57,790 bases of DNA, from the IMG/VR virus record IMGVR_UViG_3300033149_006504, positions 1-57,790 of that record; one strand, given 5' to 3'. Position 1 is the first letter of the stretch, and every line of letters begins with the position of its first letter. This document shows positions 4,974 through 28,853 of this stretch, one piece after another. The notes below the pieces were generated by a model. It saw only the letters and a list, made by a program, of their open reading frames with translations, had not been told where the DNA came from and ran no database searches. Source of the stretch: a virus. Lineage: Duplodnaviria > Caudoviricetes. The position numbers and the translations under genes are program-made.

Positions 4974-5267
4974 TTGCCTCTCCTCTATTTTGTTTTAACA
5001 GCCTATGGTCTAACTCAGTTGATCTGCTATGCCAAGATTTTTAATAAAATCCGACCAAGTGGTCATTTTTGGACATGTCCAATGTGCATAGGATTTTGGG
5101 TGGGGATACTTTTATGTGGCATAAACCCATGGACAGAACTATTTATATTTGAATTAACCGCTGTAAATCTATTTATTTGTGGATGCATAAGTTCTGGTAC
5201 TTCATATGTATTGAACATGCTTTTTGGAGACCGGGGTATTAACCTCGTCATAAGGGAGAAAAAATAA
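4974..5267 (+). CDS. Small membrane protein, DUF1360-like
   Basis: Hydrophobic segments around a CPMCIGFWVG (CxxC..W) motif; TTG start. Confidence 0.55.
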   Translation: MPLLYFVLTAYGLTQLICYAKIFNKIRPSGHFWTCPMCIGFWVGILLCGINPWTELFIFELTAVNLFICGCISSGTSYVLNMLFGDRGINLVIREKK

Positions 5268-12033: not shown

Positions 12034-12089
12034 TATAACAACCATAAAATATTACCTTTATAAATTTTTGTCTTTTTACAAAATAAATA

Positions 12090-12099
12090 ACTATTTATT
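12090..12099 (+). promoter_or_regulatory. Putative late promoter motif (ACTATTTATT)
   Basis: Intergenic, upstream of the scaffold-MCP pair. Confidence 0.55.
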
Positions 12100-13162: not shown

Positions 13163-14884
13163 ATGTCAATTATTAATAAATTAACGGAAGGCATCGTTCG
13201 CCGAGACCTCGCCAAGGAAGGATCCGCTCTTTTATCCAAGTGGGAAAAGACCGGTCTGTTGGAAGGACTAAATGAACGCACAAAACAAGGTATGGCTAGC
13301 CTTTTAGAAAATCAAGCTAAGGAAATTCTTCGTGAAGCTTCCACTATGGCAGGTTCCGGAGGCGGAGACGTCGAAGGTTTCGCATCTGTCGCATTCCCAA
13401 TCGTTCGCCGAGTATTCGGTGGACTGATCGCCAATGATCTTGTATCTGTCCAGCCAATGAGCCTCCCATCGGGACTCATTTTCTTCTTGGACTTCACTTA
13501 TGACGGCGGTACCACCCCTCGTCTTGATTATGTTGCGGATACTTCCGTATATGGCGGCGGAGTTGTTGGTTCTCAAATTACTGGCGGTATTTCACTTGCT
13601 GGTAACGAAGCAGAACAAAGCTACTATGCTTTGAACAACGGCTACTCAAGCCCAACCGGTTCAGCAAATGTCACTTATGATGGCATGGCTTCTGGAACGG
13701 TCGGTTCTGGTGTTCCTGGTGATTGGACTGCTACCGGTACAGGTGCAGCAGCATTGCAAGCCCTTGGTGACCGTCTGGTTCGTTTCGACCCAGACTTGGC
13801 ATCAGGTTCTTTCGCTGCAGTTGCTAGTGTTCCCCTATCGCAATTCACTGGTGCTGGGCAACTTAACATCAAAGATTATGTCACCATTACTTTGGAAGAT
13901 TCAGGCGGAATCGTCGACGGAAACCAAGTTCGTCGTCTTACCGTAGATGACCCAACCACTCCTGGCAACATCTTGCTTGTCGCAGTTGGTACAACATCTA
14001 TCCTCGCAGAATCAGATTTGCTACTGAATAACACCGCTTCTTTCGTCATCGATGACAATTTTCAAGCAGCTGGTGCAATCGGAGCAGTTACTGGTATTGA
14101 TACTTGGGGACTGGAAAACGAAGCAGCAATCCCAGAAATCGACATTAAGGTTGATTCTGTCGCTGTTACTGCCAAAACCAAGAAGCTCAAAGCTAAATGG
14201 ACCCCAGAATTGGCTCAAGACTTGAATGCATACCACAACTTGGATGCCGAAGTCGAACTGACTTCAATTCTGTCCGAGCACATCGCTCTAGAGATCGACC
14301 AAGAAATCTTGGAAGACCTCGTGAAAGGTGCTACTGCTCAAACATTGTTCTGGTCTCGTCTTCCTGGCAAATTTGTCAATAGAACGACTGGAACACCTCT
14401 CCCAACTTCTGGAACATTCCCAGACTTCACTGGTAATGTTAGTGAATGGTATGAAACCCTCATTGAGACTATCAATGATGTTTCTGCACAGATTCACCGC
14501 AAGACCCTAAGAGGCGGAGCAAATTTCTTGGTGTGTTCACCGGAAATTGCAAATCTTCTTGAGTTCACCGCTGGATTCAGAGGCGCCGTATCCCACGATG
14601 ATGATCGCGGAAATGTCGGTGCTGTCAAAGTTGGCTCTTTGAGCAAGAAGTTTGACGTTTATGTCGATCCCTACTTCCCACGGAACGTTGTTCTTGCAGG
14701 TCGTAAAGGTTCTTCTTTCCTCGAAAGTGGATATGTCTACGCTCCATATGTGCCGCTCCAAATGACTCCAACCATCTTTGGTACAGAGGACTTCGTGCCA
14801 CGCAAAGGTGTCATGACTCGATATGCCAAGAAAATGGTTCGTCCCGATATGTACGGACTCGTAATTGTTCAAGATCTAGTATAA
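13163..14884 (+). CDS. gp23: Major capsid protein (T4 gp23-like)
   Basis: LLENQ, VSVQPMSLPSGLIF, VTAKTKKLKAKWTPELAQDLNAYHNLDAEVEL, YAPYVPL and GVMTRY motifs; strongly biased codon usage. Confidence 0.96.
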   Translation: MSIINKLTEGIVRRDLAKEGSALLSKWEKTGLLEGLNERTKQGMASLLENQAKEILREASTMAGSGGGDVEGFASVAFPIVRRVFGGLIANDLVSVQPMSLPSGLIFFLDFTYDGGTTPRLDYVADTSVYGGGVVGSQITGGISLAGNEAEQSYYALNNGYSSPTGSANVTYDGMASGTVGSGVPGDWTATGTGAAALQALGDRLVRFDPDLASGSFAAVASVPLSQFTGAGQLNIKDYVTITLEDSGGIVDGNQVRRLTVDDPTTPGNILLVAVGTTSILAESDLLLNNTASFVIDDNFQAAGAIGAVTGIDTWGLENEAAIPEIDIKVDSVAVTAKTKKLKAKWTPELAQDLNAYHNLDAEVELTSILSEHIALEIDQEILEDLVKGATAQTLFWSRLPGKFVNRTTGTPLPTSGTFPDFTGNVSEWYETLIETINDVSAQIHRKTLRGGANFLVCSPEIANLLEFTAGFRGAVSHDDDRGNVGAVKVGSLSKKFDVYVDPYFPRNVVLAGRKGSSFLESGYVYAPYVPLQMTPTIFGTEDFVPRKGVMTRYAKKMVRPDMYGLVIVQDLV

Positions 14885-14905: not shown

Positions 14906-14934
14906 AAACCCTCCCATATTTGTGGGGGGGTTTT
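14906..14934 (+). terminator. Rho-independent terminator after MCP
   Basis: AAACCCTCCCAT-ATTT-GTGGGGGGGTTTT hairpin followed by a T-rich tail. Confidence 0.75.
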
Positions 14935-14946
14935 GTGCTTTTGAAG

Positions 14947-14956
14947 ACTACTTATT
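14947..14956 (+). promoter_or_regulatory. Putative late promoter variant (ACTACTTATT)
   Basis: Lies between the terminator and the GGAGG RBS of the neck gene. Confidence 0.45.
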
Positions 14957-14974
14957 GCTAGGAGGAAGCTCGCT

Positions 14975-16243
14975 ATGGCTTTACCAACATTAACACCCGC
15001 TAGTCAAATGAGTAAGGCAATCCTGCCCCCAACTGGAAATGTGGCAGCAGTGTCTGCACAATTACCACTTGCGGTCTATTCAGATTCGACCGCCTTCCTC
15101 TCCGGCGCCGCAGATCAGGTTGCCTATACCTTTAAGAAGATCGGCGGTGATGTTCTTGACATCGAGCTAAAACCCGGCAATGTCTATGCCAATTATCAAG
15201 AGGCAGTATTAGAATACAGCTATCTTGTTAACCTGCATCAATCAAAAAATATATTATCGGATGTCCTGGGCCAGACCACGGGGACATTCGATCAAGACGG
15301 GCAAATTGTGACCGGCCCCTCGGGTGTAAATTTAAAATTTCCTCGTGTAATGTTTGAGTACGAGAAGAGGGTTGCTGATTACTATTCCTTCGAGGCAAAT
15401 GTGGGAGGAACAATCCCCATATATTCGGCTTCTTTTCAATTACAGGAAGGCGAACAAGATTACGATTTACAGTCCATCATCTCTGGATCCTCCGCATCGG
15501 GAGTGGGTCCAAATGGAGACCCAGCACCATTTGCTGGTATCGTTGGCGATAAAAGAGTTATTGTCAAGAAAGTTTATTACAAAACCCCCCAGGCGATGTG
15601 GAGATTCTTTGGATACTTCGGGGGACTCAACGTTGTTGGAAATATGAACTATTATGGTCAATACACTGATGATTCAAGTTTCGAACTCATTCCCGCATGG
15701 CAAAATAAGCTTCAAGCGATGGCCTTTGAGGACCATATCTGGACACGACTGTCTCACTACTCCTATGAATTAAAAGACAACAAACTGAGAATATATCCGG
15801 CACCACAGCTATTAAGCACATATCGATATATGTGGGTGGATTTTTCCGTAATACTCGATAGTTGGGAAGAATCTGGAGATGTAGACTCCGGCATCGGTGG
15901 AATCAACAATATGAACACTCTTCCTTTCGATAATATTCCATATGAAAATATTAATGCGATAGGTAAACAGTGGATCCGTAGATTTACACTGGCACTCTCA
16001 AAGGAGACTTTGGCACAAATAAGGGGAAAATTCCAGACAATCCCGATTCCTGGTGAATCTGTCACTCTAAATGCTTCGGAGCTTCTATCACAATCAAAAG
16101 ACGAGCAGGAGAAGCTAAGAGAAGAATTAAAAACGATTTTAGAAGAACTAACATACGCGGAGTTAACAAAGAGAGATTCGGAGAAATCAGAAGCGGTGAA
16201 TACAATACAAAAAAGAATACCTAATCTCATCTTCCAGGGGTAA
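14975..16243 (+). CDS. Neck protein (T4 gp13-like head completion)
   Basis: The C-terminal WIRRFTLALSKETLAQIRGKF..IPGESVTLNASELL segment resembles gp13; follows MCP. Confidence 0.7.
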   Translation: MALPTLTPASQMSKAILPPTGNVAAVSAQLPLAVYSDSTAFLSGAADQVAYTFKKIGGDVLDIELKPGNVYANYQEAVLEYSYLVNLHQSKNILSDVLGQTTGTFDQDGQIVTGPSGVNLKFPRVMFEYEKRVADYYSFEANVGGTIPIYSASFQLQEGEQDYDLQSIISGSSASGVGPNGDPAPFAGIVGDKRVIVKKVYYKTPQAMWRFFGYFGGLNVVGNMNYYGQYTDDSSFELIPAWQNKLQAMAFEDHIWTRLSHYSYELKDNKLRIYPAPQLLSTYRYMWVDFSVILDSWEESGDVDSGIGGINNMNTLPFDNIPYENINAIGKQWIRRFTLALSKETLAQIRGKFQTIPIPGESVTLNASELLSQSKDEQEKLREELKTILEELTYAELTKRDSEKSEAVNTIQKRIPNLIFQG

Positions 16244-16245
16244 AA

Positions 16246-17115
16246 ATGAGTAGTAAAAAAGAACAAAATGATGATTTTCGACCATATTATCCCAAGGGGG
16301 ACATACCATCCGAACCCCCTCTAAAAGAAATCTCCTTCATGCCATCCACAATCGAGACCATTGATTTTGCCCTATACGATTGGCTTAACGAAGGGCTGGA
16401 TATATTCTGCACAACCAATGATGGGTGGAAAAAAGTCCCCCTCATATGGTCAATGCCCGAAAGGTCCTTTCAAACAAAGGATAACAAAGATTTGAGAAAT
16501 GCTGATGATATTTTTACCTTACCGGTCATCAGTATCGATAGAAGCTCTTTGATAAAGGATCCAAACATGAAAGGTGTCGCATGGTCGCACATTCCCAGGC
16601 AAAACGACGCAAAGGGCGGAGTGCTCACTGTTGCGAGAAGGATCCAGCAAGAAAAAACATCAAATTTTGCAGATGCGGATGCAAAAAGGAAATTTAATCA
16701 AAAAACTTATCCCCTGAAGAACAAAAAGATTGTTTATGAAACGATAACGATGCCAATTCCAACATATGTCGTCGCCAATTACAAATTAACCATTACAACC
16801 GAATACCAGCAACAAATGAATGAAATTTTTACACCTTTTATGTCATATACCGGACAAATTAACAATTTTTTCATAAATCGCGATGGCCATAGATTTGAGG
16901 GGTTTGTAGATGGGCAATTTGGACTAGAAAACAATATTTCGGCCCTTGGCGAGGAAGAAAGAAAATACAAAACAGTCATTAATCTAAAGATTTTGGGCTA
17001 TTTAATGGGTTCTGACAAAAATGATAATCAACCAAAGGCAACGATTCGTGAATCCGCAGCGGAACTTAGGTTTACCAGGGAGAGAGTTGTTTTCGGTGAC
17101 AAGAAGGAGTATTAG
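16246..17115 (+). CDS. Probable tail terminator/sheath stabiliser (gp15-like)
   Basis: VPLIW, LPVISIDR and PTYVVANYKLTITTEYQQQMNEI resemble gp15-like proteins; located in the neck cluster. Confidence 0.5.
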   Translation: MSSKKEQNDDFRPYYPKGDIPSEPPLKEISFMPSTIETIDFALYDWLNEGLDIFCTTNDGWKKVPLIWSMPERSFQTKDNKDLRNADDIFTLPVISIDRSSLIKDPNMKGVAWSHIPRQNDAKGGVLTVARRIQQEKTSNFADADAKRKFNQKTYPLKNKKIVYETITMPIPTYVVANYKLTITTEYQQQMNEIFTPFMSYTGQINNFFINRDGHRFEGFVDGQFGLENNISALGEEERKYKTVINLKILGYLMGSDKNDNQPKATIRESAAELRFTRERVVFGDKKEY

Positions 17116-17117
17116 TC

Positions 17118-17951
17118 ATGGCTGACGAAGAAAATAAATGGACGAAACCCTCTAATCCTCCGCCACCTCTTTTTCTAGGCGAAAGAGAGAGAAATCTTGT
17201 CAAGCAGGTCAATGACGAGCTTATCGAGAGGGTAATAGGCCAAGCAATTACTTATTTACCAATCTCTATGGAGAGATCAAATTTTCACCCACTCTATGGG
17301 GAGGCGATAGAAAAGTCATTTTTACCACCAATTCGAGTATATGCTTTGGTGGAATTTGAAAGTAAAACAACAATAACAACAGATTATGGTATCGATAAAG
17401 ATTATTCAATCATCGTTCGTTTTCATAACCGCAGACTCCACGAGGATCAAAATTTATTCATACGAGAAGGGGATTATGTTCAGTATGGCACTTCTTTTTT
17501 CGAAATAGTCACACTTACTGAAGACAGAGACTTGTTTGGCCAAGTTGACCACCGATTCCAGCTTATCGCCAAGTGCATAAAAACAAGAAGAGGGTTAATA
17601 AACCTGGACATCTTGCCTACCGCTACTGTAGCGGCCCTCACTGATAGCTACGAGGCAGAAGTTGTTCCCACCTTATCTCCCGCATCAATTCCAATAACAA
17701 GTGTTGTTCGGCTTATATACTGTGAGGATGCCATCGTGGATATTTCTTCGGGAACTTCTCTAAATTCTTTTCTTGGTGCCCCAATAACTTTATCTCTAGA
17801 GACTGCGGCCATCTATCTAAATGGACTGAGGCAGGAATTGACCGATAGTCCTATAACCGGAGAATATTATATTGTTTCTGGCGAACTCTACAGCTCCTTT
17901 GACATTTCAATTGGCCAACGCCTGACATTAGAGGTCTTGACATTAGTATGA
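17118..17951 (+). CDS. Neck protein (T4 gp14-like) with C-terminal extra domain
   Basis: IGQAITYLP, HPLYGE, YGID and IREGDYVQ..FFEI motifs fit a gp14-like head closure protein. Confidence 0.55.
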   Translation: MADEENKWTKPSNPPPPLFLGERERNLVKQVNDELIERVIGQAITYLPISMERSNFHPLYGEAIEKSFLPPIRVYALVEFESKTTITTDYGIDKDYSIIVRFHNRRLHEDQNLFIREGDYVQYGTSFFEIVTLTEDRDLFGQVDHRFQLIAKCIKTRRGLINLDILPTATVAALTDSYEAEVVPTLSPASIPITSVVRLIYCEDAIVDISSGTSLNSFLGAPITLSLETAAIYLNGLRQELTDSPITGEYYIVSGELYSSFDISIGQRLTLEVLTLV

Positions 17952-19153
17952 GTATTTTCAAAGAACATAAATCAATAGCAGATCGCTCCGCAACAGACAG
18001 AAAAAGACACAAGCAAAAAATAGATAAAGCACTCAGGGAGGGGTTAAAGGGTGTGATTGCTGAAGAATCCATCATAGGTCAAAGTGGCAAAAAGAAGGTA
18101 AAAATTCCAGTTAAGGGTGTCAGGGAATACCAATTTGTTTATGGGGACAACAAAAACAACAAAAAAGCGGGTTCAGCTGGCGATAAAAAAATCAAAAGAG
18201 GGCAGATCTTAAGAAAGGGCGGAGGAAAATCAAAACAAGCAGGCAAAAAAGGATCCCAGGACCCAGGAGAAGAATATTATGAAGTGGAGGTTACATTAGA
18301 GGAGCTAGCGGAGTTGCTCTTCACAGACCTTGAGCTACCTGATCTTGAAAAAAAGAAATTTAGATATATAAAGACCCAAAAACTGAAGAGGCGCGGATTT
18401 AGAAAGAAAGGCATGCGATCACGCCTTTCAAAAAAAGAAACTATTAAGAGAAAAATAAGAAGAAAGAAGAGGGCCGTTGCCGCAGGCACCTATGATCCGG
18501 ATGGCGAAGAGAGATTCCCTTTCCACGAAGACGATTTAAAATATAAACATATGAAATTGAAGCCAGAAGAAAATAATTCTGCAGTCATCTTCTTCTTAAT
18601 GGATGTTTCCGGCTCAATGACGAAAGACAAGAAATACATCGCCAGAAGTTTTTATTTTTTATTGTATCAGTTTCTTCGATACAAATACGATAACATAGAG
18701 GTTGTTTTTATTTCACATTCGACAGAAGCAAAAGAGGTCAGCGAAGATGATTTCTTCAAAAAGGCAACCAGCGGAGGGACCTTGATGTCTACTGCATTAG
18801 AATTAGAAAAAGAGATAATAAATAAAAGATATCACCCATCCAGCTGGAATATATATACTTTTTATTCTGGTGACGGAGAAAACTGGTCCTACGATGACGA
18901 AAAAACAATAAGATTGTTTTCAGAACTAAAAGAACTAAATCAAATGATGTGCTATGCTGAAATAGACCCATATTCGGTGGGAGAAACCGATTTGTCGTTT
19001 TTGTCAAGATCTTTTAATTATAATGTTAGTGAAGCGAGCAAAATGTGGATGAAAATCAATGCCGTCCTGGGTGATAGTTTTAAGAAAGTAAAACTTACCA
19101 AACCAGAACACATTTGGCCATCATTCCGTGAATTATTCGGGGGAAACCCGTGA
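17948..19153 (+). CDS. yeaH: YeaH/YhbH family (DUF444) VWA protein
   Basis: N-terminal DRKRHKQKI..IAEESII..KVKIP; PFHEDDLKY; MIDAS-like AVIFFLMDVSGSM; SGGT; YHPSSWNIY.FYSGDGENW. Confidence 0.92.
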   Translation: MSIFKEHKSIADRSATDRKRHKQKIDKALREGLKGVIAEESIIGQSGKKKVKIPVKGVREYQFVYGDNKNNKKAGSAGDKKIKRGQILRKGGGKSKQAGKKGSQDPGEEYYEVEVTLEELAELLFTDLELPDLEKKKFRYIKTQKLKRRGFRKKGMRSRLSKKETIKRKIRRKKRAVAAGTYDPDGEERFPFHEDDLKYKHMKLKPEENNSAVIFFLMDVSGSMTKDKKYIARSFYFLLYQFLRYKYDNIEVVFISHSTEAKEVSEDDFFKKATSGGTLMSTALELEKEIINKRYHPSSWNIYTFYSGDGENWSYDDEKTIRLFSELKELNQMMCYAEIDPYSVGETDLSFLSRSFNYNVSEASKMWMKINAVLGDSFKKVKLTKPEHIWPSFRELFGGNP

Positions 19154-20451
19154 AAGATTGGTCCATAAAAGAATTAGAGCATTGGGACACAGAAATTTGC
19201 AAAATTGCAAAAGAGAAATATAATCTAGATTGGTTCCCTATCGAGTACGAAATCTTAAATTATCATGAGATGATCGGTGCCATGGCATATTCCGGCCTAC
19301 CGTCACATTACCGTCATTGGTCTTTTGGAAAATCTTTCGAAAGAACAATAACTAGATACAATCTTGGGATGGAGGGTTTGCCGTATGAGATGATCATCAA
19401 TGCGAATCCTTCAATCGCTTACCTCATGCTTGAGAACCCGATGAGTACCCATTTATTAACAATGGCTCACTGTGTGGGACATTCAGATTTTTTTAAAAAT
19501 AACAGAATGTTTAAATATACGAATCCGGCCGACATTCTAGCAAGTTTCAAATCCGCCGCAAAAAGAGTTAAGTCATATATAGAGGACCCAAATATTGGAA
19601 TAGAGAAAGTGGAGAGAATCTTAGATGCATGCCATTCTATTCAATATCAGGTGCCCCGCACACCGGGAATATTTAGAATGAGCGAGCATGAGACTAAAAA
19701 GCTGATTATTAAAAAAGCTAAGGGGAAGATCGATTTATCTTCCGGTCTGGTAAATAAAAATTATAATCTTTTGGATTTTATCAAGAAGAACGCCAGAAAT
19801 CTGGAAGATTGGCAGCAAGACTTAATTGAGATGGTGGAGAGAAGATCTTCATATTTCATCCCACAGGCTCAAACAAAGATCATGAATGAGGGTTGGGCAG
19901 TCACGATTCATGAAAAAATAATGAAAGATTTAAAGCTTGCAGATAAATACTATTTAGCATTCTTAAAAACACACAATCAGGTTGTGAGACCTATAGTCGG
20001 AAGAGTGAATCCTTATCATCTGGGATATATGATTTTTAAAAAAATTGAAGAAAAATATGGATTTGAGGAGAGTCTTCTTGTCAGGGAAACCCACGACGAT
20101 GAGTCCTTTATTCGAAAATATCTAGATGAAGACTTATGTAGAGAACTGAACCTATTCAGCTATTCTTACAGCAATAAACAGAAAAATTATGCCATTAATG
20201 ACATTTCCGATAAAGAAGGGTGGAAAAGCGTTAGGTCCGCCCTAATTAGTAATGTAGGGTTGGGGGGAGTTCCTATCGTTTATGTTAAAGACCATGATAA
20301 AAAGACAAATACACTTTATATCAAGCATGAGCATGATGGTAGGGATTTAGATATCCCGTATGCAAACAAGGTCTACAGCCAGATTTGTTATTTATGGGGC
20401 GATGACGTCGATTTTACAGCAATTATAGATGAGGAACTATGGGAATTTTAA
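19150..20451 (+). CDS. spoVR: SpoVR/YcgB family protein
   Basis: GLPSHYRHWSFGK, YEMIINANPSIAYL, AHCVGHSDFFKNN, YFIPQAQTKIMNEGWA, NPYHLG and HEHDGRDL motifs. Confidence 0.95.
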   Translation: MKDWSIKELEHWDTEICKIAKEKYNLDWFPIEYEILNYHEMIGAMAYSGLPSHYRHWSFGKSFERTITRYNLGMEGLPYEMIINANPSIAYLMLENPMSTHLLTMAHCVGHSDFFKNNRMFKYTNPADILASFKSAAKRVKSYIEDPNIGIEKVERILDACHSIQYQVPRTPGIFRMSEHETKKLIIKKAKGKIDLSSGLVNKNYNLLDFIKKNARNLEDWQQDLIEMVERRSSYFIPQAQTKIMNEGWAVTIHEKIMKDLKLADKYYLAFLKTHNQVVRPIVGRVNPYHLGYMIFKKIEEKYGFEESLLVRETHDDESFIRKYLDEDLCRELNLFSYSYSNKQKNYAINDISDKEGWKSVRSALISNVGLGGVPIVYVKDHDKKTNTLYIKHEHDGRDLDIPYANKVYSQICYLWGDDVDFTAIIDEELWEF

Positions 20452-20452
20452 A

Positions 20453-22393
20453 ATGAAACATTCAAAAACAAATAAATTTTTAGAGATCGCAGAGGGGCAT
20501 AAAAAAAGCAGCAAAAGAGAGAAGTTTTCTGGCACTTTTTCTGATTTTTTGGAATTGTTGGAAGACGATAAAGATATCGCGATATTGGCCCACAAACGCC
20601 TATATAGCACGATCGTTGAAAAGGGAATAACAAGATTGTCAGAAGAAGATTCCCGCTGTAATAACCTATTTAATGGAGAAGCCCTCAAAACTTATGATTA
20701 TTTTCAAGATAGGTTTTTTGGAATGGAGCGACCTCTCGCTAAAATTATGAGATATTTGCACTCTGCATCGATGAGGGGAGAAGAGAGTAAGCAAGTTTTA
20801 CTCCTCCTCGGACCCGTCGGAGCCGGTAAATCGGCACTAGTTGAACACATTAAGCGCGCCTTGGAGAATTCTGGCAAACTATATGCTCTTGGGGACTGCC
20901 CGATACAAGAAGATCCACTCCATCTTGTTCCTCGCTCCCTCAGAGAAAACTTTAAAGATATCTATGGAATAAAGATCGAAGGAGACTTATGCCCGGTTTG
21001 TCGTCACAACCTATTGGAAGTACACGGCGGAGATTATACAAAATTTCCAGTAAAAGAAACTTCCTTTTCAATTCGGGGCCGTCGCGGCATCGGAGTTGTT
21101 CCGCCTATGGATGCCAACACTCAAGACACAAGCATCCTGATAGGGTCAGAAGACATTTCTAAATTAGATCTATATCCAGAGGACGACCCTCGTGTTCTGT
21201 CCCTTAACGGGGCCTTTAATGTGGGAAATCGTGGAATCGTGGAATTCGTAGAGGTCTTCAAAAACGAAATAGAGTTCTTGCATACAATGATTACAGCAAC
21301 TCAAGAAAAAGCTGTCCCGTCTCCTGGTAAAGGGGCGATGATTTACTTTGATGGGGTTATCCTTGCCCACTGTAATGAAGCAGAATGGGTTAAATTCAAG
21401 TCTGAAAATACAAACGAGGCAATTTTAGATAGAATAGTTCGAGTAAACGTTCCATATTGTTTGGAGGTTAGTGAAGAACAAAAGATCTATCAAAAACTTC
21501 TTGACGAATCAGATTTCGATGCACATATCGCACCGCACACACTTGAACTTGCGGCCATGTTCTCTGTACTCAGTCGGCTAAAATCTTCCAACAAAGTTGA
21601 CCCCCTCACTAAAATGAAGATCTATGATGGGCAGGAAATCGTCGAAAAAGGATATATCAAAAAAGTGGATATTAATGATTTGAGGGACGAAGTACGCGAC
21701 GAGGGAATGACAGGCATCTCGACAAGATTCATTATGAAATCTATAGATGCAGCTCTCGCTGATTCCGAAAGGAACATGGTTACACCGATCTCTATTCGGG
21801 ATGCTCTCGTCAAACAAGTTAAAGAACAGGTCGTTGTAGAAGAGCTGAGGGAGAAATATTTATCCTTTCTCCAAAAAGAGCTTCACGATGAATATCTCAA
21901 AATATTGGAAACAGAAATCACGAAAGCCTTTGTTTCTGCATACCAAGAACAAGCAGAATCGCTCTTTGACAATTATCTCGATCATGCGGAATCATATGTC
22001 AATGGGACCAAGGTTAAAGACAAGGTAACTAATGAAGAAATGGTAGCTGATGAACCTTTCCTGTGCTCAATCGAAGAACAAATCGGAATAGTCGGTTCCG
22101 CAAGAGAAAACTTTAGGGCAGATATCACCGCATACATGTTTGCAAAATTGAGAAAAGGCGAAAAGATTGACTGGACATCATATGGTCCTCTTAAAGAGGC
22201 CATCGAAAATAAGCTGTTAACTTCGGTACGAGATATCTCCAGAATCGTCACGAAATCCAAGTCGAGAGATAAGAAGCAGCAAGGAAAATACAATGAAATG
22301 GTGAAAACCCTTATCGAAAATTATGGTTACGACGAGAACTCTGCTACGGAAATTATCAAGTATGCATCGAATAATCTATGGAGAGACAGTTAA
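20453..22393 (+). CDS. prkA: PrkA/YeaG family AAA+ ATPase (annotated serine kinase)
   Basis: Likely start at ATG 20453. FFGME, Walker A LLLGPVGAGKS, CPIQEDPLHL, GNRGIVEFVEVFK, NEAILDRIVRVNVPYCL and EGMTGISTRF motifs. Confidence 0.95.
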   Translation: MKHSKTNKFLEIAEGHKKSSKREKFSGTFSDFLELLEDDKDIAILAHKRLYSTIVEKGITRLSEEDSRCNNLFNGEALKTYDYFQDRFFGMERPLAKIMRYLHSASMRGEESKQVLLLLGPVGAGKSALVEHIKRALENSGKLYALGDCPIQEDPLHLVPRSLRENFKDIYGIKIEGDLCPVCRHNLLEVHGGDYTKFPVKETSFSIRGRRGIGVVPPMDANTQDTSILIGSEDISKLDLYPEDDPRVLSLNGAFNVGNRGIVEFVEVFKNEIEFLHTMITATQEKAVPSPGKGAMIYFDGVILAHCNEAEWVKFKSENTNEAILDRIVRVNVPYCLEVSEEQKIYQKLLDESDFDAHIAPHTLELAAMFSVLSRLKSSNKVDPLTKMKIYDGQEIVEKGYIKKVDINDLRDEVRDEGMTGISTRFIMKSIDAALADSERNMVTPISIRDALVKQVKEQVVVEELREKYLSFLQKELHDEYLKILETEITKAFVSAYQEQAESLFDNYLDHAESYVNGTKVKDKVTNEEMVADEPFLCSIEEQIGIVGSARENFRADITAYMFAKLRKGEKIDWTSYGPLKEAIENKLLTSVRDISRIVTKSKSRDKKQQGKYNEMVKTLIENYGYDENSATEIIKYASNNLWRDS

Positions 22394-22423: not shown

Positions 22424-22465
22424 AAACAAAGCCTCGTAATATTTTTACGGGGTTTGTTTTTTTTT
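22424..22465 (+). terminator. Rho-independent terminator after prkA
   Basis: CCTCGTAA-TATTT-TTACGGGG stem extended by AAACAAA/TTTGTTT and followed by a long T tract. Confidence 0.8.
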
Positions 22466-22648
22466 GTTGCCATATTCAGTTATTTTTTGCTTTTGAGGAT
22501 AGGTGGCACTATCTACGAACGACTTGGTGCAACCTTAGACCAAGCTCTTGTTTTTTTGAAAAACCTCGGTTTTTTTTAAGAGCAAATTTACTTTTTTTTA
22601 AGGAGAAAAAAATATGAAAATAAATAAAACAAATAGGAGGAACTTATC

Positions 22649-25276
22649 ATGGCTTTAAGTGATCACACTTTAATAGCAGCTTATCCGCTTGGCTTCGGAA
22701 TCGAAGACTTGCAGGACAGCTACGATGGATATAGTGCCCAAAACATGACATTTGCTGGAGATGTGGAACTCGGCGGATTACCCGTCGCAGATTTCAACAG
22801 CTCTTATTACGGCATCGATAATGCTCTAGAAAATGGTCTTGACACAGAGTATTCAATCTCAATGTGGATTAAACCAGATTCGCTTCCTGCGGGCAGTGCC
22901 CAAAGAACTATTATGGCAAATGAGCAACACGGCTCTTATTATAATACCTTTGGAATCCAACAGATGTCCGATGGACAGCTTTACATCCATCACAGATCTG
23001 CCAATGGTGGCGCCTATGATATCGCATTTACCGGTGTGTCCCTTGCGGTAGACGAATGGTACCATGTCACTGCAACATGGAGTGGCACACAAATCAAGTG
23101 GTATGTCGATGGTGAATTGACAAGCACCACGGCCGCCACAAGGGTTCCTTGGAACTCTCCAGCTACACTCTGGATCGGCGCAAATGCAACGAAAACCAAT
23201 AAAACATACTACGACGGTAAAATGTCGGATTTAAGGTTCTGGTATTCAGAACTTACTGCATCCGATATCTCGGAGTTATATGCAGCAGGACAAGTTCCGA
23301 TAGACTTGGGCCTCGTCCTTCATCATGACTGTGATGATGCGACAGCCGAAATCGGTTCGGATGTGACCTTTACTGATGTTTCCATTGGCTCATCTTTAGG
23401 TCGCACACATTGGGATTTTGCGAATCTCAATTCAAAAGCACCATTGGATGTGAATAACCTGCCAGACATGTCTGGCGATTGGACCGTTTCGATGTGGTTT
23501 TCGGAGATGACAGCTCCAACCACTTGGCGATCCATTGCAAAAAGTCAAACAGAAATCTTGGGAGTGGTTTCAAGTCCGCATCACTCACCCGCTAACACAC
23601 TGGGTGTTTACACAACCACTGGTTATGTAAGCGCTGGATACTCGATGAATTATTTGAATTTTCAAAACTGGAATCACATGGTTATCGTCGGTAGCGGAAC
23701 AACTACCAAATTTTATATTAATGGATCACATGTCGGAACAGCACCAGTGAAAATTTCAACAGATCTCTATTCAATAAATAATCAACCCGTTGGGGCTTAC
23801 AATCAGTTGTTTGCAAACAACATGGACGATTTACGAGCTTGGAATCGTGCACTCTCAGAAATTGAAGTTCAAGCCCTCCACCTAACAACAACTGTCACGC
23901 CATCTCTAACAGATGATCTTGTAGCAAAATATGCTCTTGATACTGATGCATCTGATTCTGTTGGATCGAATGACGGAACAGTGACTGGTGTTGATTTCAT
24001 ATCAGATTCTGGAAGAACCGTTGCCTCATTCGACGCATCTGCTGGTGAGAAGATTCATTTTGGCGATGTTGACGATGTTGACTTTGGAACCGCTGATTTC
24101 TCGGTTGGAGCTTGGGTTAACTTTAACTCTATCTCAACGGGCCCATTTGTTTCGCCAGTCGTTCAAAAAGGTCAGACAAGCTTGGCCAATTGGAGCGGAT
24201 ATGCCCTGAACGCTTATCAAGGACAAATGAGGTTCGGGGTAGGTGGAAATAATGGAGTTAAAGTTGCCGCAGCTGCAATTACAACAGGCGATTGGCATCA
24301 TGTAGTTGGTACAAGAAAAGGCGCGGCTATAAAGCTGTATATTGACGGCTCTTTGGTGGATACACAAGCCGATACAATGACTAGGAATGTTAGCACACAT
24401 TTGCCATTAACTTTTGGTTCCATTAACAATGGTACAGAATACAATGGATTGTTGGATGCAATGGTTGACGATGTTCGAGTTTGGTCTAGGGCACTCTCTG
24501 ATTCTGAAGTCTCAACCCTACATGCAGCAGGAGCAGATAGCCCTGCCCCATCCGGCTATGACTGGACTCACGGCGGAAACTTGTCTGATATTGTCAAATT
24601 CTCAAGAGGATATGACATTTCTGGCAATCCTTCTTATGCTTATGCTAAGAAAGAGTCGGGTGATGGTTCAACAACTCTGTACTTTGCGACAGATTTCCAA
24701 ACATGGTCAACATTCTCATCATATGCTTCCGGTGTGTCATCAATTGACGGCTCCCCAATTTGCATGGAATATGGCCCGAATGGAAAAGTTCTGGTAGGAA
24801 CAGATAGCGGCAAGTTATATGAAATCGTCCTTGACGGCTCATCGGCTCCGCAATCTTACTCACTTGTCCATTCAATGGCTGGTAGTGAAGATATCAAGGT
24901 CATTAAATATGGTGTATCTTCCAACTTGTGGGCTTTCGAAGCTGGCGGAAAGGTTTATACCATTCCTGTCGGAGGCGGAGCAGCAGTTGAAAAACTCGAC
25001 CTAAATGTTGTAGATCAAGCTGGCTCTATCGTGCAGGACATGTCCGAAGCGAATGATGCTTGGTCAATTGTGGTTCGTCGCTCTGATTTCACCTTCGTGG
25101 TGTATCTGGTGTCACCTGACTGGTCAACTGTAAACAACCCTGCTTCTTTGCAAGCGGTGTTGAGTGCGATCAATCCGGTGGATTTGAACTACTTCTACGA
25201 TATTGACACTTGGTGTGCTTCTGGTGCTGATGGAACTGTCATTACGACAGACGACATCAATAACTGGATCGTATAA
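22649..25276 (+). CDS. LamG/concanavalin A-like lectin repeat protein (three domains plus C-terminal domain)
   Basis: Three repeats of the SISMWIK...WYHVTATW..YVDG...DLRFW-type LamG_3 pattern; GGAGG RBS. Confidence 0.85.
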   Translation: MALSDHTLIAAYPLGFGIEDLQDSYDGYSAQNMTFAGDVELGGLPVADFNSSYYGIDNALENGLDTEYSISMWIKPDSLPAGSAQRTIMANEQHGSYYNTFGIQQMSDGQLYIHHRSANGGAYDIAFTGVSLAVDEWYHVTATWSGTQIKWYVDGELTSTTAATRVPWNSPATLWIGANATKTNKTYYDGKMSDLRFWYSELTASDISELYAAGQVPIDLGLVLHHDCDDATAEIGSDVTFTDVSIGSSLGRTHWDFANLNSKAPLDVNNLPDMSGDWTVSMWFSEMTAPTTWRSIAKSQTEILGVVSSPHHSPANTLGVYTTTGYVSAGYSMNYLNFQNWNHMVIVGSGTTTKFYINGSHVGTAPVKISTDLYSINNQPVGAYNQLFANNMDDLRAWNRALSEIEVQALHLTTTVTPSLTDDLVAKYALDTDASDSVGSNDGTVTGVDFISDSGRTVASFDASAGEKIHFGDVDDVDFGTADFSVGAWVNFNSISTGPFVSPVVQKGQTSLANWSGYALNAYQGQMRFGVGGNNGVKVAAAAITTGDWHHVVGTRKGAAIKLYIDGSLVDTQADTMTRNVSTHLPLTFGSINNGTEYNGLLDAMVDDVRVWSRALSDSEVSTLHAAGADSPAPSGYDWTHGGNLSDIVKFSRGYDISGNPSYAYAKKESGDGSTTLYFATDFQTWSTFSSYASGVSSIDGSPICMEYGPNGKVLVGTDSGKLYEIVLDGSSAPQSYSLVHSMAGSEDIKVIKYGVSSNLWAFEAGGKVYTIPVGGGAAVEKLDLNVVDQAGSIVQDMSEANDAWSIVVRRSDFTFVVYLVSPDWSTVNNPASLQAVLSAINPVDLNYFYDIDTWCASGADGTVITTDDINNWIV

Positions 25277-28822: not shown

Positions 28823-28853
28823 TGCCCCTCCACATTTGTGGGGGGGCACTTTT
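28823..28853 (+). terminator. Rho-independent terminator after the coiled-coil gene
   Basis: TGCCCCTCCAC-ATTT-GTGGGGGGGCA stem followed by CTTTTATTT. Confidence 0.75.

Follow-up and report, generated by a model that had tools for sequence, protein, structure and literature searches.

A virus-specific arrangement of the yeaH, spoVR and prkA genes in marine T4-like phages and its possible role in the breakdown of host protein

Why would a lytic phage of the T4 type maintain, directly behind genes for its head-to-tail connection, a complete copy of a cellular three-gene module whose products, PrkA/YeaG, YeaH and SpoVR, have been biochemically obscure for decades? The question is raised by a stretch of viral DNA of 57,790 nucleotides (hereafter the window), a 57.8-kb virus record of IMG/VR (IMGVR_UViG_3300033149_006504, positions 1 to 57,790) that is estimated to be about 31% complete and is recognizable as T4-like by its gp23 capsid protein, gp20 portal, large terminase (here a fragment), prohead protease, sheath, tube and baseplate genes. 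A preliminary description of this DNA had presented the three genes as an intact and rearranged operon that is built into a virion-assembly transcription unit, and as the best candidate for an undescribed system. Our comparisons point to a single acquisition of the triad by these phages followed by strict conservation, and we tentatively favor a role in the liquidation of host protein over one in virion assembly or in signaling.

All three genes are intact, as had been described, and their products match the respective Pfam families far above the curated cut-offs. The first, yeaH (17948-19153, plus strand), encodes a YeaH/YhbH (DUF444) protein of 401 amino acids (PF04285, 2.8e-105, 353 bits); spoVR (19150-20451, plus strand), which begins with GTG, encodes a 433-residue SpoVR/YcgB protein (PF04293, 1.1e-114, 384 bits against a cut-off of 27); and prkA (20453-22393, plus strand) encodes a 646-residue PrkA/YeaG AAA+ protein that matches both PF08298 (AAA_PrkA, 1.1e-144, 482 bits) and the C-terminal family PF06798 (6.4e-79, 266 bits), the cut-off being 25 bits in either case. 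The junctions are likewise as tight as had been reported: the start of yeaH overlaps the stop of the preceding gene in the ATGA at 17948-17951, the start of spoVR overlaps the stop of yeaH in the GTGA at 19150-19153, and the ATG of prkA at 20453 follows the stop of spoVR (TAA, 20449-20451) after 1 base. This prkA start is the choice of the public gene calls that give the 646-residue product, with an in-frame ATG at 20429 as the alternative.

The order of the genes sets the viral loci apart from the cellular ones. A scan of IMG/VR recovered 144 relatives by their PrkA, and the viral counts given here rest on the best 80 of these (61-89% identity). The order yeaH-spoVR-prkA is seen in 77 of the 80 loci; in two others spoVR-prkA stands at the edge of a contig, one lacks upstream sequence, and no other gene order occurs among the 80. 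The parallel cellular scan covered one genome per prokaryote species, and its best 80 loci comprise 76 titled as Bacillota and four contigs from metagenome bins; since it used two exact peptide patterns, the enrichment in Bacillota partly reflects these. The Bacillota loci, with PrkA 57-62% identical to the phage protein, have prkA-yeaH-spoVR in 73 of 76 cases, the other three being cut by contig ends, and prkA also comes first in all of ten further cellular loci. The rearrangement relative to cells that had been noted at this one locus is thus a general feature of the viral set, in the form of a cyclic permutation. The best cellular matches reach 53-62% identity to PrkA and, to YeaH and SpoVR, about 37-47%. 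Genes of cellular type, viral flanks and recurrence in related viruses here come together in the combination that defines an auxiliary gene.

The four bin contigs (L085-L088), titled as Luteolibacter, Legionellales, Halobacteriovorax and Bdellovibrionota, show the gene order of the viruses and group within the viral clade; two of them carry GroEL-like and PhoH neighbors as in viral contigs, and one of the bins holds a gp23 capsid gene on a separate contig. They are probably phage contigs that were binned into bacterial genomes. As to the genuine cellular distribution, PrkA was found in 43 genomes besides the bin itself in a sample of 201 from the phylum of the Legionellales-titled bin, at 33-37% identity; the phylum of the Bdellovibrionota-titled bin has it in 113 of 124 genomes, where full-length matches reach 53-58%. 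We considered the Bacillota as the donor of the viral genes and rejected them, because they were found through the two exact peptide patterns and this second phylum is equally similar. Some genomes of the phylum of genome G009 contain two PrkA paralogs, respectively 53-58% and 30-38% identical to the phage protein, and such coexistence implies that the PrkA family has two old branches that are able to share one genome.

Phylogenies with SH-aLRT support were computed in quick IQ-TREE runs from subsampled rows, namely 27 of the 77 viral and 24 of the 70 Bacillota sequences for PrkA and, for YeaH and SpoVR, one in four viral and one in five Bacillota sequences along with the ten extra cellular loci. 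In each of the three trees, the viral sequences lie on one side of a single branch (SH-aLRT 99 for PrkA, 97 for YeaH and 99 for SpoVR). The monophyly of the viral sequences in all three trees, taken together with the viral order, argues that the triad was acquired once as a block, permuted, and then inherited within the T4-like phages. A further 17 phage records have PrkA at 29-35% identity, and these belong to Thermus phages, four huge uncultured phages, the Ralstonia jumbo phage RsoM2USA and one Enterobacter record. The Thermus phages (phiYS40, TMA, Lalka8 and others) resemble the phage of the window in bearing a triad in the order yeaH-spoVR-prkA close to packaging and head genes; unlike it, they and RsoM2USA, at about 33% identity, sit on a distant long branch and are represented by annotation tables only (PMC8504454). 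In phiYS40, moreover, a gene for a 616-residue hypothetical protein lies between spoVR and the kinase gene (L001 4109-5959), and RsoM2USA has the triad in the cellular order. Since the Thermus phages share the permutation from a distant branch, it is possibly convergent.

Conservation within the marine clade is pronounced. In the near relatives, PrkA is 81-89%, SpoVR 69-82% and YeaH 61-79% identical to the proteins of this phage, and the corresponding figures are 76-80% for the adaptor-like protein encoded upstream, 72-81% for full-length matches of the capsid protein and 48-78% for two neck-region proteins; PrkA is the most conserved protein of this 9-kb stretch. The median ratio of nonsynonymous to synonymous substitution rates (dN/dS) over unsaturated pairs is 0.024 for prkA (7 pairs), 0.062 for spoVR (11), 0.097 for yeaH (4) and 0.145 for the capsid gene (89). 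Synonymous sites are saturated in most pairs, so that the filter on synonymous divergence was passed by 2-11 pairs for each gene and by 89 for the capsid, and on account of this saturation we relied on the amino-acid identities as well. Together, these values point to strong purifying selection on the triad.

What the individual proteins might do can be approached through their sequences and predicted structures. Residues 20-640 of PrkA align with a solved structure labeled a "serine protein kinase" (9xip, also 9xiq and 9xir; E = 1.2e-98). Its Walker A motif, GPVGAGKS, is invariant in the eight aligned phage PrkA proteins, and its counterpart in 9xip reads GPVGSAKS. Against the NCBIfam equivalog model NF011999, the phage protein attains 410 bits, under the cut-off of 576, which marks it, as judged from sequence, as a diverged member of the family and not an equivalog. 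Its match to AAA_5 is under the Pfam cut-off, and by Pfam it is thus not a MoxR-family ATPase. A conserved cysteine pattern, CP...CPVC, spans residues ~149-185 (20897-21007) and is seen in 9xip too; it may form a metal-binding cluster in the N-terminal region of the AAA+ protein.

YeaH is modeled as a disordered, basic N-terminal part followed by a C-terminal vWA domain, in which the MIDAS residues D219, S221, S223, T278 and D309 are invariant in 40 sequences. With this fold, Foldseek retrieves 196 matches from the PDB at E <= 0.001, among them complement C2a, integrin I domains, Rpn10 and NorD of the NorQD complex, and sequence and profile searches of the PDB gave nothing for either YeaH or SpoVR. 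Against TIGR02877 (sporulation protein YhbH), YeaH scores 375 bits, below the cut-off of 468. For SpoVR, the predicted fold appears zincin-like, with some resemblance to that of zinc metallopeptidases. A Foldseek search of the PDB with the SpoVR model returned no match, no usable match came from the ESM Atlas, and Pfam added no peptidase family at E up to 10. An H107-x3-H111 motif, which is HCVGH in phages and HVYGH in Bacillota, is invariant, as is N246-E247-G-W-A (NEGWA) some 135 residues away from it; indeed, a whole set of His, Glu and Asp residues does not vary among the examined phage and cellular sequences. The two motifs recall HExxH and NEGFA, which are the motifs of M1 peptidases. 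The C-terminal domain of SpoVR matches PF24755 at 22 bits, under the cut-off of 27.6, and the protein scores 268 bits against NF008737, whose cut-off is 679. We found no paper that joins SpoVR with zincins or metallopeptidases, which does not settle whether this fold resemblance had been published before.

A prediction of the YeaH-SpoVR complex scores 0.81, the best control reaching 0.01. That mark was attained by 58 of 80 solved complexes and by 2 of 110 mismatched pairs, counts that are approximate here because our own alignments were used. Contacts agree between the runs to at least 87%, the partner pLDDT is at least 86, and residues 1-90 of YeaH are placed on residues 55-61, 105, 151-167, 281-287 and 333-411 of SpoVR. 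The modeling thus supports a putative binding of SpoVR by the N-terminal part of YeaH.

Work on cellular members of the family gives these structural leads a physiological frame. The phage triad is like the cellular PrkA-YeaH-SpoVR module of the B. subtilis PrkA-like branch in its Pfam families, in the full length of its proteins, in its Walker A, MIDAS and SpoVR His/Glu residues, and in its tight operon; it is unlike that module in being cyclically permuted, in forming a separate viral clade, in having all three proteins under the NCBIfam equivalog cut-offs, and in residing in a lytic T4-like phage that lacks host sigma-factor control. The one physiological role with direct flux measurements belongs to E. 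coli YeaG (SpdA), a protein of the same family but of its other branch (proteobacterial matches are 33-37% identical) and studied with no phage involved (PMC13684143). Its link to the bulk proteolysis of starving E. coli dates only from 2026: in the available text of that study, YeaG is required for an RpoS-dependent, largely non-specific degradation of cytoplasmic proteins induced by starvation, which yields amino acids and ATP, and yeaG alone was tested, yeaH and ycgB going unmentioned in that text (PMC13684143). As for the enzymology, the B. subtilis PrkA is presented in the accessible part of one report as an ATP-dependent protease, from casein hydrolysis, and not a kinase (PMC9512850), and purified B. 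anthracis PrkA is described, in the part of a second report that was available, as having neither kinase nor protease activity (PMC13001217). The latter source also places the AAA+ domain of PrkA in an FtsH/YME1-like clade with a pore loop (PMC13001217).

We lean, at slightly less than even confidence, toward reading the triad as a protein-degrading or protein-remodeling machine that would liquidate host cytoplasmic protein at the time of peak capsid demand in chronically starved hosts, a reading that leans on the E. coli YeaG study (PMC13684143). According to this scenario, the cellular module would have been acquired once, as a block, by the phage from which a large marine T4-like group descends, and in the subclade of the present phage it would have moved behind the head-to-tail genes. 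PrkA would serve as the ATP-driven AAA+ motor, YeaH as a vWA/MIDAS adaptor whose N-terminal tail holds SpoVR, and SpoVR as a metal-binding, zincin-like partner. Freed of host starvation control, the trio would run a starvation-type bulk breakdown or remodeling of cytoplasmic proteins, turning host protein into the amino acids and energy needed for virion production in nutrient-poor seawater. The enzymology is the main weakness of this proposal: SpoVR, which has no Glu at position 2 of the motif, lacks the catalytic Glu of HExxH and with it the gluzincin motif.

A bolder form of the same idea, which is conceivable although we regard it as doubtful, would have the triad act as a self-contained, split FtsH-like machine, with PrkA as the motor, YeaH as the tether and the zincin-like SpoVR completing it, in effect an autophagy-like "proteome-recycling" module of ocean T4-like phages that requires no host starvation signaling and pays for capsid synthesis in starved cells. 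The likeness to an FtsH-type AAA+ protein joined to a zinc peptidase lies in the FtsH/YME1-like clade and pore loop of PrkA, as given in the available text on it (PMC13001217), and in the predicted fold of SpoVR; the differences are that SpoVR has no HExxH and that the parts are separate proteins, making this a resemblance in possible working and not one of membership. If it were true, the phage copy would be the simplest system for studying the biochemistry of PrkA, YeaH and SpoVR, stripped of host regulation.

The position of the triad in the window speaks for a different role, namely that of a chaperone for virion assembly or proteostasis, in which PrkA and YeaH would work like other AAA+/vWA pairs on head, neck and tail proteins (in folding, scaffold removal or quality control) with SpoVR as a cofactor. 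The triad is indeed gapless with the head-to-tail genes and lies inside a block bracketed by terminators, and its junction with the third neck-region gene is common to 22 of the 80 IMG/VR loci. In Lalka8 the triad stands between the portal/minor head genes and TerL, and in phiYS40 it is near TerL. The vWA fold of YeaH, in matching NorD, brings to mind the AAA+/vWA pairs NorQ/NorD, CbbQ/CbbO and RavA/ViaA, from which the triad is set apart by PrkA not being of the MoxR family. In 32 loci, a gene for a GroEL-like protein begins 18-1341 bases after prkA, followed in 26 by phoH 3.1-6.5 kb further on. The folding of the T4 capsid protein depends on GroEL. The GroEL-like protein (L047:11938-13263, L062:12218-13594 and 30 more loci) has 441-458 residues and is weakly similar to the apical/intermediate part of GroEL; it matches phrog_5725 at 1e-13 to 5e-16 and the NCBIfam GroEL model at 2e-12, far under the cut-off. 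The PhoH protein downstream of it is a PIN-PhoH fusion. Neither gene is present in the window, itself only a third of a genome.

Against such an assembly role stand the relatives in which the triad lies elsewhere. The gp23 capsid gene is present in each of five large ones (190-298 kb, of which four are judged complete), and in four of the five the triad is about 94-110 kb away from it, among genes for a helicase, glycosyltransferases, a tail fiber, an AAA ATPase, the GroEL-like protein and PhoH; over the whole set, the upstream context differs in 52 of the 80 loci. The surroundings with GroEL-like and PhoH genes look, from gene content, like a proteostasis or starvation neighborhood and not a virion one. 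On the PrkA tree, each of the two main viral branches includes loci with the GroEL-linked arrangement, and those with the neck-linked arrangement are nested inside a single branch; hence, the neck position looks derived, which weakens the case for a dedicated morphogenesis role. Moreover, the cellular triad functions in organisms that have no phage. The link to neck genes drawn in the preliminary description thus stands for the gapless, terminator-bracketed arrangement seen here and fails as a general property of the viral triad, and we consider an assembly chaperone unlikely.

The triad might instead take over the starvation or dormancy regulation of the host, acting as a signaling unit, in line with the older view of a kinase pathway, with no bulk proteolysis. 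In this vein, Price et al. proposed a conserved signaling pathway on the grounds that yeaG, yeaH and ycgB show mutual cofitness across six bacteria (bioRxiv 10.1101/072470), an observation that we also count in favor of the degradation machine. According to the available parts of the respective texts, PrkA affects the expression of sporulation genes pleiotropically (PMC13001217), YeaG belongs to the RpoS regulon while RpoS levels themselves change in an SPD-dependent way (PMC13684143), and viral spoVR reaches its highest abundance where an oxygen minimum zone has its stressed oxycline layers (PMC8940887). PhoH as a neighbor would fit this idea too. On the other side, kinase activity went unconfirmed in two studies, insofar as their text was available (PMC9512850, PMC13001217); late expression, if position is a guide, would be rather late for reprogramming; and the combination of an AAA+ motor that has a pore loop with a vWA adaptor and a zincin-like fold resembles a machine that works on proteins and not a sensor. 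We rate a regulatory takeover, too, as improbable.

Still poorer are the prospects of a counter-defense device that unfolds or degrades anti-phage proteins of the host. An ATP-dependent remodeling machine carried by a phage would fit such a function in a general way, and in PADLOC PrkA has a weak match to DolB (7e-5, 20 bits) that covers the P-loop region only; YeaH and SpoVR match none of the PADLOC defense-system models, placement in a late operon is unusual for anti-defense genes, and conservation across varied genome contexts along with the very slow evolution of PrkA sits ill with an arms-race gene, making this explanation quite unlikely. Finally, a chimeric assembly, or a recently captured, near-identical bacterial operon drifting neutrally under relaxed selection, both of which the preliminary description had named as possible refutations, can practically be dismissed, since the same junctions recur in 22 other contigs, the viral sequences form a single clade that is only 53-62% (PrkA) and about 37-47% (YeaH, SpoVR) identical to cellular proteins, all frames are intact and dN/dS is low.

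The preliminary description went too far in speaking of an undescribed system. PrkA and SpoVR are annotated in Thermus and Ralstonia phages: the phiYS40 annotation lists SpoVR and a "serine kinase", and the paper on RsoM2USA has PrkA and SpoVR in a table, with one sentence on the predicted function of SpoVR, and does not treat them as a unit (PMC8504454). PHROGs contains all three families under "unknown function". An oxygen-minimum-zone virome study ranks spoVR first in abundance among "sporulation" auxiliary genes and interprets it as a means of sporulation control, PrkA being unmentioned in the available portion of its text (PMC8940887). We found no paper treating the three genes as a phage-borne unit, in a search of freely accessible main texts, which is not proof of absence. 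What is new here is how large and coherent the marine T4-like clade is, the permutation specific to viruses and the extreme conservation of PrkA, as well as the proteostasis neighborhood in other clades and the structural leads for YeaH and SpoVR.

That a slowly evolving phage clade keeps all three genes in an order of its own argues that they work as one unit without host-specific regulators. If our favored reading holds, the triad would represent a viral metabolic takeover of a kind not yet described, the recycling of host protein as a counterpart to the recycling of host DNA. Furthermore, the "sporulation" label attached to viral spoVR in marine surveys is probably wrong for phages of non-sporulating ocean bacteria, and the predicted YeaH-SpoVR contact and the zincin-like fold of SpoVR furnish testable hypotheses for the cellular system as well.

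Turning to the genomic setting, six genes follow the capsid gene without gaps, the three of the triad being preceded by an adaptor-like gene and two that have no family match. The first (14975-16243, plus strand) encodes a head-tail adaptor-like protein of 422 residues, which matches phrog_211 ("head-tail adaptor Ad2", 4.6e-11) and has a strong AGGAGG ribosome-binding site ahead of it. The second (16246-17115, plus strand) encodes a 289-residue protein whose synteny is kept in relatives, at 64-78% identity, and whose position suggests a neck or tail-completion role; the third (17118-17951, plus strand), the stop of which overlaps the start of yeaH, encodes a protein of 277 residues with 48-74% identity in relatives. 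Neither of these two proteins has a match in Pfam, PHROGs or NCBIfam, so that the earlier designation of all three as neck genes finds family-level backing for the first alone.

Two hairpins resembling intrinsic terminators bracket the block. One, with 12 pairs and a T-rich tail (14906-14933, plus strand), comes directly after the capsid gene and would be an upstream boundary or attenuator of the six genes; the other, with 11 pairs and a T-run (22429-22455, plus strand), ends the block and agrees with the terminator that had been described after prkA at 22424. With hairpins at both ends, a single transcription unit is plausible. A near-identical G/C-rich hairpin of the CCCTCC..TTTGTGGGGGGG type is found both at 14906-14933, after the capsid gene, and at ~28825-28850, after a gene for a protein of 1135 residues, and looks like a reused terminator cassette.

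Late transcription of the block is suggested by its position. Among sequencing runs searched for this DNA, no RNA run contained it and the DNA runs shared only a small fraction of its words (0.05-0.08), an outcome with no bearing on expression. The motif AACTATTTATA, in which the T4 late-promoter word appears as its reverse complement with a G added, occurs on the plus strand with 0-1 mismatch at 5137, 7581, 11603, 12089, 29306 and 33890, mostly upstream of structural genes; the copies at 5137, 11603, 12089, 29306 and 33890 lie 20-200 bases ahead of the protease gene, the 11635 gene, the 12130 gene, the sheath gene and the 33919 gene, respectively. At up to 2 mismatches, 43 matches are observed against 24.7 expected, and the motif may be the late promoter of this phage group. 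The late-promoter-like copy AACTATTTATT (12089-12099, plus strand), with one mismatch to AACTATTTATA, is situated ahead of the 12130 gene and of the capsid gene, and transcripts that start from it might read through into the operon. The site at 14947, from which the preliminary description had the unit transcribed, turns out to be a poor match with 3 mismatches to AACTATTTATA; given this weakness, read-through from the capsid promoter and a dedicated promoter are equally likely. Of the T4 late promoter TATAAATA, the window has two copies, neither of them close to the operon, and a sigma-70 scan of the window, which barely exceeds shuffles (43 against 32.2), was not used as evidence. Judged by the arrangement of genes, the triad is probably made together with the late structural proteins in this subclade.

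The major capsid protein of the T4-type gp23 family (13163-14884, plus strand; Pfam Gp23, 1.8e-76) is about 43-50% identical to its closest cultured counterparts, from the Flavobacterium phage immuto, the Microcystis phage Mel-JY01 and the Rhodothermus phage RM378. Its 573 residues include two stretches that match Pfam with about 190 additional residues between them, as is also the case in relatives (624-642 residues), which suggests a capsid protein with an inserted domain. Strong AGGAGGAA ribosome-binding sites at 14955-14974, ahead of the adaptor gene, and at 22630-22648, ahead of the first gene after the triad, suggest a host that uses Shine-Dalgarno pairing. This latter gene (22649-25276) encodes an 875-residue protein with three Laminin_G_3 (concanavalin-like) domains and tail-fiber-like PHROG matches; in some relatives (L015-L017), a Laminin-G gene is located upstream of the triad and not downstream.

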